Assembly (NCBI GenBank): GCA_965237635.1 | Contig: CBDEFX010000002.1 | Coordinates: 402,554 to 466,553, forward strand | Direction: 5' to 3' | Source: Dehalococcoidia bacterium | GTDB lineage: Bacteria; Chloroflexota; Dehalococcoidia; Lucifugimonadales; CAUZJF01 | DNA length: 64,000 nt | In this document: positions 36,815 to 38,220 of the stretch, piece by piece | Layout: each line of letters starts with the position of its first letter | How positions within the stretch are numbered: the first letter of the stretch is position 1 | Program-made: the position numbers and the translations under genes | Notes under the pieces: generated by a model | Told to the model about the DNA's origin: nothing | Databases searched by the model: none | The model's input: only the letters and a program-made list of their open reading frames with translations

Positions 36815-38220
36815 CTAGAGCTTGCCCAGCATCAGGCGCGCCAGTCGGCCATGAAGGAAGGCCGCGCCGTTCATCATATGTAGCGAGATGATGGCCAAGG
36901 GGATGCCGGTGATCGTGAGTATCAGAGCCTCCCACAGCGCGTCAACCTGCCAGATGCCCATGTCGATCCCGTCGTCAACCGAGAAGTAGAACGGGGCGGC
37001 TAGGAGCGCACCCGTGAAAGCGACCAGAACCACCACGATGACGAATGAGGCGATCCCCAGTGGAAACTTCAGGAACAGGTAGAGAATGCCGGTCCACGTC
37101 AGTCTATTTGCCAGGTGCGCGTTGAGCCGACGCCACGCGCCGATGAACAGGCGCTCTTCGGTACCCAGACTCGGATGGCCGTCCTCAAGGCGCTCGGACC
37201 GGTCGTCGCCAGGCGCTATGGCGGGTATGCATTGGATAGGGACGGCGCCGCCGATGGCCGGACTGCTCCGGCTGGTTTGCGCCATCCCCCCCCTCCGAAC
37301 CGGACGTGCGACTTTCACCGCATCCGGCTCTCCATCAGATGGGTTAGACCAGTGTGTCGGGAACATCGGCTTTTCCGCCATCCTCGTCGGGTTCATACAT
37401 CCCGCCTCCGGCGTAGTTCGCTTCGTTCCACTCCCATCTGACTGCCCCCCTTCGCCATGCGGCCGGCTTTCCCGGCCTCGGACTACTACGAGGGCTCTGC
37501 CACACGTCCGGCGTTGGCCGAAGGCTGGCCTACTCCGTTGCCGGAGAGCCGGACGTGCTTCCCAAGTTCGACCAGGTTGCATCTTCATGCCGTCTTAGAT
37601 CCTGCCTGTACGCCTGGCACGGCTCGTTGCCGCGCTCGCCATCGGAGGATGCCGATCAAAGGGAGTACAGCATCCCTGCCTGAACAAGGCTGTCTCTGCA
37701 AGGAAGAGACAGAGATTCCGATGACTCCACCCTCGCCCTACCGTGAGCGGGTGGTTCATGGTGCGACGCTTCAATCAGCAGTTCCTTTCGTGACCATAAC
37801 GGCACTCTGGCTAGCAGCGCGCGGCGTGGTAGGGTGGCCGCCGCCACATTGTCGGGAAGGCTTCAGACACGACTCCGCCTCTGGCCCTCGCGCCTGCTTC
37901 CCTAGCCACCGGCCTACTCCTGGCCGGGTTCCACACCTGGAACGTTCAACCTATGCGCTTCTTGGCGCACCTTCCTTGAGCAGGTGGATCGCCAGCAAGC
38001 GCTCGAACTGGTACAACACCCACGACGCGGCCAGAACAAGAGCCAGTATGGGAATGCCTAGCCAAATGATCGCCAGTCCAAAGCCCAAGGATATGCCGGT
38101 CACCAGAAAGACGAAGTACGCGATGCCCAGGGGGAACGACAGCAACAGGTAGAGGATATTGAGATAGCTCTGCGGCTCGATGACCACGCTGAAGAACGGT
38201 ACCAGCCTCAGCTTGTTCAT
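36815..38220 (-). CDS. Putative sensor-domain membrane protein, two exons (37971-38220, 36815-37230) split by a group II intron
   Basis: Both halves carry YLLLSFPLGI / YLFLKFPLGI motifs. Joining gives LLKE-G-IPAIAP in frame, 666 nt = 221 aa. Confidence 0.82.
37231..37970 (-). mobile_element. ORF-less group II intron (740 nt)
   Basis: 5' GTGCG; domain V GAGCCGGATGCGGTGAAAGTCGCACGTCCGGTTC (37297-37330); 3' end CCTATCCAAT with A at -7; IIB-like DIII; EBS1 CTTCCTT in a hairpin loop (37700-37706) complements the exon end AAGGAAG. Confidence 0.92.

Follow-up and report, generated by a model that had tools for sequence, protein, structure and literature searches.

A non-autonomous group IIB intron without an open reading frame inside a putative sensor gene of a Dehalococcoidia bacterium

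We analyzed a stretch of 64,000 nucleotides (nt) from a Dehalococcoidia bacterium (contig CBDEFX010000002.1, positions 402,554 to 466,553; hereafter the window), in which an original prediction had placed a group II intron lacking an open reading frame (ORF) within a membrane-protein gene. The 740-nt element at 37970..37231 on the minus strand, which begins with GUGCG and ends with AAU, is an ORF-less, non-autonomous group II intron with IIB architecture. It lies in sense orientation within the gene for a PF13796 ‘Putative sensor’ membrane protein, where it is inserted in the linker between the two halves of this gene. The features of the intron and its exons, including exon-binding sites (EBS), the intron-binding site (IBS) and what remains of an intron-encoded protein (IEP), appear below in window coordinates. 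Pairing data refer to a consensus fold, which was obtained with RNAalifold from seven copies of the intron and projected onto the window coordinates.

37971..38220, minus strand: first exon of the ‘putative sensor’ gene (PF13796), from ATG at 38220 to ...CTCAAGGAAG
37977..37971, minus strand: IBS1, AAGGAAG, the last 7 bases of exon 1
37231..37970, minus strand: intron, identified with Rfam; absent to the base in locus L001 and absent in locus L002
37562..37965, minus strand (intron nt 6-409): domain I; 127 pairs, 97.8% of cells paired, 11 double compensatory changes
37803..37792 with 37601..37589, minus strand: tetraloop-receptor-like motif, GCCGU-UAUGG-UC with GA-UCUAAG-ACGGC, read from the sequence
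37757..37761, minus strand (intron nt 210-214): EBS2, CCAUG, assigned by covariation with exon positions -14..-10
37700..37706, minus strand (intron nt 265-271): EBS1, CUUCCUU, in the loop of the hairpin CUGUCU...AGACAG
37608, minus strand (intron nt 363): EBS3, the bracketed C in GCGUA(C)AGGCAG, paired with G at 37230, where exon 2 starts
37498..37561, minus strand (intron nt 410-473): domain II, from the RNAalifold consensus
37443..37497, minus strand (intron nt 474-528): domain III; 16 pairs, 100% paired; ends in CAUGGCGAAGGGGGG
37333..37442, minus strand (intron nt 529-638): domain IV stub; closing stem CAGAUGGG/CCCAUCUG, Shine-Dalgarno-like GGAGG, IEP ATG at 37396
37297..37330, minus strand (34 nt; intron nt 641-674): domain V; 14 pairs, 100% paired, 3 compensatory changes; intact
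37234..37294, minus strand (intron nt 677-737): domain VI; 22 pairs, 98.7% paired, 3 compensatory changes
36815..37230, minus strand: second exon of the same gene, from GCATACCC to the stop codon TAG at 36817..36815

A comparison with group II intron covariance models, one of the checks proposed with the original prediction, identified the element. The Rfam model of domains V and VI (RF00029) matched 37332..37231 on the minus strand at 62.6 bits (gathering cut-off 40, E 6e-10, model positions 1-77 of 77), and this was the sole Rfam match in the whole window. The model of domains I to IV (RF02012), applied with relaxed thresholds, matched 37927..37792 on the minus strand at 32.2 bits, slightly below its cut-off of 34. 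The GUGCG start, the AGC triad of domain V and the branch-point A at position -7, which had all been named from the letters alone, were found. The intron begins with GTGCG(CC) at 37970 and ends with CCTATCCAAT (...GTCCCTATCCAAT, CCAAU) at 37231; these ends agree with the consensus 5’ GUGYG and 3’ AY, and both are fixed independently by an empty-site allele. In the Rfam alignment the branch-point A is bulged from domain VI at 37237, the seventh base from the intron’s 3’ end, and domain V (GAGCCGGAUGCGGUGAAAGUCGCACGUCCGGUUC) contains the AGC triad, a 2-nt bulge and a GAAA loop.

Without the 740 nt, the two exons form an ORF of 666 nt encoding 221 amino acids (aa), the frame length that had been anticipated, and the product matches PF13796 from end to end (115.6 bits, profile positions 1-162 of 162). 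The spliced protein has 504 relatives in the database, nearly all of them 213-234 aa in length and uninterrupted. The best of these (P0001; 221 aa, 99% identical) is encoded on a 1.69-Mb ENA contig (L001) with the same neighbors as in the window, i.e., genes for a histidine phosphatase, the sensor, a BrkB-like protein and a Kelch protein. DNA identity between the window and L001 was 98.2% on the exon 1 side (39309..37970 versus 8912..10251) and 98.7% on the exon 2 side (37233..34730 versus 10248..12751). In this sister strain, which is ~98.5% identical in DNA, precisely these 740 nt are absent, which leaves the very junction predicted for removal of the intron, CTCAAGGAAG/GCATACCCGCC. The intron-less allele that the original prediction had named as a check, with AAGGAAG joined to GCATACCC, is therefore present in L001. 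A second homologue (L002, 88% aa identity) is likewise uninterrupted. The intron-bearing allele was also found in an independent assembly under another ENA record (L143, a 30.8-kb contig), with 100% identity over 2582 bp that include the whole intron. Because the intron interrupts the PF13796 gene, gene callers give it as two fragments; in the unspliced form, translation stops 6 codons into the intron.

The consensus of the seven copies is the canonical six-domain wheel with 218 pairs, of which 22 show compensatory change on both sides. Between 97 and 100% of the pairs are retained per domain, percentages that are biased towards the structure, as it was predicted from the same alignment, so that more weight falls on the compensatory changes. 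In the window copy, 1 pair of the entire consensus is non-canonical. Its private substitutions keep pairing: C>U at nt 372 and C>U at nt 735, the latter in domain VI, each change a C:G pair to U:G, and C>G at nt 413 regains pairing with 469U, opposite which the nearest sister copy (L134) has a mismatched C. An 11-nt-receptor-like motif for the GAAA loop of domain V (UAUGG/UCUAAG) was also read from the sequence. Judged by this fold, the intron RNA of the window looks functional.

Relatives of the intron were drawn from GTDB genomes and ENA assemblies. A scan of the genome collection with a degenerate domain V pattern gave at least 120 loci, which were mostly unrelated introns. Among the matches listed, two loci were useful, both from Dehalococcoidia metagenome-assembled genomes (MAGs): L091, a domain I match, holds a second 740-nt ORF-less copy, and L099, a 3’ end match, holds a related 3’ end behind a reverse transcriptase (RT) ORF. 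The protein family collected with the L099 ORF comprised 2637 matches at E<=1e-30, typically 565-570 aa in length, with RVT_1 and GIIM domains and an H-N-H-like C-terminus (CxxC...HH...CxxCH). The DNA around two of these proteins (P0121 and P0229) revealed full-length introns of ~2.39-2.75 kb in Dehalococcoidia assemblies, i.e., the RT-bearing sister introns that the original prediction had suggested looking for. Scans of JGI metagenomes with an ORF-less-junction pattern and with a family 5’-end pattern returned 0 matches each, and a scan of viral contigs with the family 5’-end pattern also returned 0 matches. A 24-nt similarity of the intron 3’ end to transposase genes of insertion sequences (IS) (E 0.01-0.14) was judged to be a chance match multiplied by IS copy number and was discarded.

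Nucleotides 1-610 of the window intron align with L127 2426-3036 (84% identity) and nt 626-740 with L127 4703-4810 (86%), and L127 carries an ORF at 3001-4698, exactly where the window copy has its deletion. The same two segments align at 84-87% with the flanks of P0229- and P0121-type IEP ORFs. Because the full-length parents carry a 565-570-aa ORF at the position of the deletion, the RT ORF has been deleted from the window intron, which agrees with what had been proposed from the sequence of domain IV. The deletion removed ~1.67 kb; it starts near codon 13 of the IEP ORF and reaches as far as its last few codons. Its junction lies at ~37361/37345, with a 3’ breakpoint that is not fixable to a single base, and over the 15-30 nt that follow, the alignment with the final IEP codons is weak. 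The IEPs begin with MNPTKMAEKQRF and the window stub, from the ATG at 37396, with MNPTRMAEKpmF (MNPTRMAEK versus MNPTKMAEK); about 12 stub codons are homologous to the IEP N-terminus, and ~21 codons remain inside domain IV. From this homology, the ATG at 37396, which had been recognized together with its ribosome-binding site, is the true start codon of the lost IEP.

The frame of this ATG, with GGAGG upstream, runs from 37396 to 36815 on the minus strand and is open through domains IV to VI into exon 2, where it is the host frame. Because it stays open through domains V and VI into exon 2, a gene caller reports a 193-aa product (P0078) that includes the second half of the sensor domain. In principle P0078 could be expressed from unspliced RNA; the open frame into exon 2 is probably a coincidence.

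Related IEPs were found in the same metagenome sample, ERZ26167216 (L123 and L125-L132; the window allele is present there as L143), and in related MAGs. The IEP is probably of class CL, in which an En domain is usual, an assignment made by elimination: with an IIB RNA and an H-N-H-like C-terminus, classes A, ML, C, D, E and F are excluded, so that CL or B remain (criteria of PMC4424553). A Pfam search of P0121 at E<=1e-5 returned RVT_1 and GIIM and no H-N-H domain; a precomputed PF01844 match is listed for many relatives in the IEP cluster among the best 120 of the 2637 matches. Comparison with the PDB did not resolve the class, with E values of 7e-33 for LtrA, 1e-29 for GsI-IIC and 6e-27 for T.el, the last from a partial query.

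The wider family also includes more complex arrangements. Full-length introns of the P0121 type are ~270-350 nt longer in domain II (L123 2515-2858; L136 15081-15431; L140 ~15088-15359); the added segment, which may be an expansion of the domain or a small insert, is absent from P0229-type introns and from all ORF-less copies. A full-length relative with a 570-aa IEP interrupts the 3’ end of radC on an integrative element with perfect EBS1, EBS2 and EBS3 matches (L136 14644-17389; L140 14659-17317); identity to the window intron is 98% over its first 55 nt and ~87% over the remainder, a pattern that hints at recombination between lineages. A mosaic at L124 2093-2950 (the same as L134 9093-9950) lies inside a P0229-type intron. 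It consists of a 5’ part of one type with ~40 ORF codons, followed by pieces 98% identical to the window lineage (nt 450-503 and 635-740) that end with CCCAAU/GCAGUUAGACG at domain IV of the host intron, an arrangement that suggests nested insertion with later recombination or deletion. Furthermore, three domain V and two domain III matches occur within 8 kb of L089 (Dehalococcoidia OZ220672.1, 3968001-3976000); therefore, several group II introns are packed together there.

The deletion junction is common to three ORF-less copies, namely that in the window and those at L134 6378..7114 (98.9% identity to the window copy, 8 differences) and L091 7074..6335 (87.7%). They occupy three different sites, and the full-length copies add three further site types, which allowed the exon-binding sites to be assigned by covariation. 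EBS1 of the window copy pairs with IBS1 as CUUCCUU:AAGGAAG, 7/7 and all Watson-Crick; this perfect complement, with EBS1 in a stem-loop, had been noticed beforehand, and it has a chance of ~6e-5 (4^-7) at a fixed position. Independent of this estimate, EBS1 covaries with the exon in four other site types: CUUCCUU:AAGGAGG in L134, CUAUUCC:GGAGUAG in L091 and CGCUGAU:AUCGGCG in L136/L140 (each 7/7 with one G.U), and CGAAUGG:CCCUUCG in L126 (6/7). EBS2 pairs 5/5 with IBS2 in L134 (CCAUG:CAUGG), L091 (CAUGC:GCAUG), L126 (GCAUU:AAUGC), L133 (GCAUU:GAUGC) and L136 (CCACG:CGUGG). At L123 2055-2079, EBS1 (CGCCGUU) faces the exon sequence GACGGGG without pairing; a good match, ACGGCG, lies 9 nt upstream, and the EBS2 segment is lacking.

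Two variable columns were present in domain I, and only one of them, nt 363, pairs with the first base of the 3’ exon in all copies (7/7; C:G in three, G:C in two, and G:U and U:A in one each). A delta-delta’ contact of the IIA type was rejected, as the first base of the 3’ exon varies, whereas EBS1 is preceded by U without exception. Since the 3’ exon is read by EBS3 in domain I and not by a delta base, the architecture is IIB, following the subgroup definitions in PMC4424553.

The L134 copy (ENA ERZ26166457, contig_10) is nested in sense orientation in another group II intron, at its domain III/IV junction, and the two form a twintron. The outer intron encodes an LtrA-like RT of 596 aa with Intron_maturas2 and an AI2M-type H-N-H, and the inner copy lies 41 nt upstream of this RT ORF. 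The site reads ...GGCACAUGGCGAAGGAGG/intron/GCAGGUGG, with the upstream flank also given as ..CACAUGGCGAAGGAGG, and an uninterrupted version of it was found in seven other loci. The terminal CAUGGCGAAGGGGGG of domain III in the window intron is the same motif that the intron family uses as a homing site inside other introns. The outer introns and the full-length parents reside on an integrative element that encodes a serine recombinase, DnaG-type primase, Rad52, SSB, RadC, a methylase and a helicase, and in L140 also type IV secretion system pilin/TrbL genes.

The L134 site (CAUGG-CG-AAGGAGG/G) provides all three pairings, EBS2 5/5, EBS1 7/7 and EBS3 (C:G). The window target (CCUGC-UC-AAGGAAG/G) has AAGGA-G/GCA in common with this home site and nothing at IBS2, and the window copy, flanked by coding exons of the sensor gene, is itself no twintron. 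On the simplest reading of these sequences, the twintron site is the cognate homing site of the window sub-lineage, and the copy in the sensor gene represents an off-target, retrotransposition-type insertion at a look-alike site; it is ectopic because EBS2 is unpaired there and fully matched at the L134 site. The insertion is also recent, because the intron is 98.9% identical to the L134 copy and is absent from a strain that is ~98.5% identical.

Altogether, we consider it very likely that the window element is an ORF-less IIB intron which arose by a single deletion, spread by means of related IEPs and entered the sensor gene in a recent off-target insertion. The ancestor was a ~2.4-kb intron of the lineage that is common in Dehalococcoidia assemblies and encodes a 565-570-aa protein with RT, maturase (GIIM) and H-N-H-like parts. 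One ancestral deletion of ~1.67 kb took out the ORF and kept the 5’ portion of domain IV with the ribosome-binding site and the start codon. In the introns that have been studied, this 5’ region of domain IV is the main binding site of the maturase. The ORF-less form would then have multiplied as a passenger of the proteins of related introns while its exon-binding sequences changed, and the window sub-lineage is targeted to other group II introns on the integrative element, at the junction of their domains III and IV, yielding twintrons. The window copy probably arrived by reverse splicing of a ribonucleoprotein (RNP) made of the ORF-less RNA and the IEP of a related intron, to which the RNA would still bind; for these steps we rely on established group II biology and on the precedent of Thermosynechococcus elongatus (PMC2882425).

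In the pre-mRNA, the 5’ exon would be held by EBS1-IBS1 only (7 bp) and the 3’ exon by EBS3-IBS3. Removal would need an IEP acting in trans that binds the part of domain IV still present, after which branching at A37237 and ligation of the exons would restore the 221-aa frame. A compatible IEP was presumably present in the cell line recently, because the insertion itself requires such an RNP. We lean, by a little, towards detectable splicing in vivo, with an efficiency that the unmatched IBS2 probably lowers. The weak point appears to be the substrate, in which EBS1 alone can hold the 5’ exon. The original prediction of a splicing-competent intron is thus plausible for the ribozyme, which is intact, and is not established for this precursor, given its EBS2.

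Four observations weigh against the history and the splicing proposed above. First, EBS2 of the window copy (CCAUG) pairs with exon positions -14..-10 (CCUGC) at 0/5 bases, a mismatch that is a property of the insertion site and not of the intron RNA. Second, as the original prediction had noted, no RT or maturase gene was found in the 64-kb window: there is no long ORF with YADD, and tblastn with two IEP types detected the 12-codon stub only. Among the best 120 of the 2637 IEP-family matches, none is listed with a longest contig of 2,490,923 nt, the length of the contig that holds the window. Third, the nearest sister does not have an intact domain V. L134 lacks 2 nt in the region of the catalytic triad (GGAGA--CGG), a deletion that the window copy does not have, so not all copies of the lineage are maintained; either the inner L134 copy is dead or its deletion is a sequencing error. 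Finally, ectopic insertions at poorly matched sites are expected to splice inefficiently (Mohr et al., PMC2882425).

These observations also bear on an alternative in which the insertion is a knock-out, with the intron rarely or never removed, because a compatible maturase is gone and/or EBS2 is unpaired, and with the sensor gene effectively split. The products could then be a truncated N-terminal piece of 89-101 aa and possibly the 193-aa piece from the residual IEP ATG. The unpaired EBS2, the lack of an RT gene in the window, the division of the gene by gene callers and the published expectation of poor splicing at such sites (PMC2882425) are in keeping with this alternative, and the intact exons are uninformative on selection, as the insertion is recent. 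However, the ribozyme core is fully intact, with private substitutions that keep its pairing, EBS1 (7/7 Watson-Crick) and EBS3 both pair with the exons, the insertion required an active RNP and hence a compatible IEP in the recent past, and IEPs of this family abound in related genomes as well as in the same sample. On balance, we consider an effective knock-out unlikely.

Autonomous self-splicing in vivo without a maturase, similar to that of C.te.I1 of Clostridium tetani, appears improbable. All of the catalytic landmarks and the tertiary-contact motifs that were checked are present, as this explanation would need. However, most bacterial group II introns require their own maturase at physiological Mg2+. 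One ORF-less bacterial intron that self-splices robustly is on record, but a retained IEP-start region of domain IV combined with close IEP-encoding relatives, as in the present family, is the pattern of ORF-less introns that depend on proteins in trans (PMC4424553).

It had further been suggested that the intron could gate expression of the host gene. As a domesticated regulatory intron it would control production of the sensor protein by conditional splicing, and its position alone, in sense within a coding region with unspliced translation ending 6 codons in, speaks for this. We found nothing else in support of the suggestion, which we regard as speculation and as highly improbable: the insertion is recent and strain-specific, being absent from L001 and L002 with the 504 homologues nearly all uninterrupted, the site is off-target, the region is full of IS elements and other mobile DNA, and there is no sign that the arrangement is conserved. 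Lastly, a mis-assembly that joined an intron into the gene might be feared, given a metagenomic source and a multi-copy intron family, but a base-exact insertion of a GUGCG...AAU element with EBS1 and EBS3 matching its flanks, found in identical structure in an independent assembly from another sample record, makes a chimera extremely improbable.

The favored history, an off-target insertion by a trans-mobilized ORF-less intron, has a close parallel in T. elongatus. There, TeI3 and TeI4 introns went through one ORF deletion, ‘driver’ IEPs spread the ORF-less copies, EBS sequences diverged, twintrons formed in domain IV, and a few insertions are intragenic or poorly matched (Mohr, Ghanem & Lambowitz 2010, PMC2882425). 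The ORF-less TeI3 and the ORF-bearing TeI4 have IIB-type RNA, as does the window intron. Both families carry a single domain IV deletion with common breakpoints and recognizable ORF remnants, which here are 12 N-terminal codons and a weakly alignable C-terminal remnant. In both, EBS1, EBS2 and EBS3 have diverged at matching sites; L134 and L091 each match a site of their own in full, with their own EBS sets, and the window copy matches its site in part. Further likenesses are relatives inserted into domain IV of ORF-containing introns, which gives twintrons, a few copies inside genes with some ectopic sites of poor IBS match, and, probably for the window intron too, dependence on the IEPs of related introns in trans. 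The systems differ in host (a cyanobacterium versus Dehalococcoidia-type Chloroflexota), in IEP family (6e-27 to the T.el4h RT, chain 6me0, with a partial query) and in homing site, which here is the domain III/IV junction of an LtrA-like intron family and of the intron’s own family; the present family is known here from sequence alone.

Other systems share individual features. ORF-less introns are almost always accompanied by related introns that encode an IEP and may act in trans, and most introns of bacteria lie outside housekeeping genes (PMC4424553). Like the family described here, group II introns of Methanosarcina are nested by homing into introns (a ‘perpetual homing site’), with ORF-less members beside ORF-containing ones and mosaics consistent with recombination, here L124/L134 (Zimmerly & Semper 2015, PMC4424553). 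In contrast to these, the host of the window copy is bacterial, and the copy is un-nested in a chromosomal protein-coding gene. C.te.I1 is also an ORF-less bacterial intron between or within coding sequences whose splicing sets the protein product (PMC4424553). It differs in that no related IEP is present in its genome and that it splices upstream of GUGYG with multiple 3’ splice sites, whereas the window intron is canonical at both ends, has just one domain V/VI and is clearly related to IEP-encoding introns. Introns in recA of Geobacillus kaustophilus and in the groEL operon of Azotobacter are likewise sense introns in conserved genes, with splicing-dependent expression (PMC4424553); they have their own IEP, unlike the window intron, which lacks one and sits at an off-target site without IBS2.

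The window intron thus reproduces the known TeI3/TeI4 pattern with a different IEP family in Dehalococcoidia-type genomes, and what is new is the documented triplet of donor-type site, ectopic site and empty site. With an intact intron in a gene, an empty sister allele, a near-identical copy at a cognate site and RT-encoding parents, four pieces are in hand that make up a clean, dated natural experiment. The Thermosynechococcus model of ORF deletion, spread in trans, twintron havens and ectopic gene hits is extended to Dehalococcoidia-type Chloroflexota. This model is often used in thinking about the origin of spliceosomal introns and of a shared splicing machinery. If the intron is spliced, Dehalococcoidia would offer a natural and currently active case of a common splicing apparatus with dispersed non-autonomous introns in host genes, and the intron-plus and intron-minus alleles in ~98.5% identical strains would permit fitness and splicing to be compared directly. 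We tentatively propose, as a possibility that falls short of probable, that the window copy represents the first step in the escape of an ORF-less intron from an intron safe haven on a mobile element into a chromosomal gene, where it would survive only by sharing a maturase in trans and through its EBS1 and EBS3 pairings. RT-based surveys of introns would miss this element.

The remainder of the window is rich in mobile and defense DNA, with several IS copies, serine recombinases, type I restriction-modification, an Eco57I-like methylase and a DUF499 protein. DDE_Tnp_1_4 transposase ORFs, three of 441 aa and a relative of 452 aa, lie at 11176-12501(-), 22668-23993(+), 31298-32623(-) and 43395-44753(-), and two IS3-type (rve) ORFs, each of 311 aa, at 9644-10579(-) and 33424-34359(-). 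Island-like content was found at 13734-21206, 28320-29936, 47064-49664, 56382-57992 and 61382-63991; the genes include those for HsdR, HsdM and two large serine recombinases of 538 and 536 aa that are nearly identical, as well as the Eco57I-like methylase and DUF499. An IS at ~31025-32744 splits the Kelch-repeat gene, which is intact in the sister strain (535 aa; L001 11872-13479), and a segment with the Tex gene (39318-42996) is inverted relative to L001 14151-17821, with inverted repeats of ~190 nt at its ends (42967-42777 and 40104-39914). Relative to L001, this IS insertion and the Tex inversion fit a strain with recent mobile-element activity.

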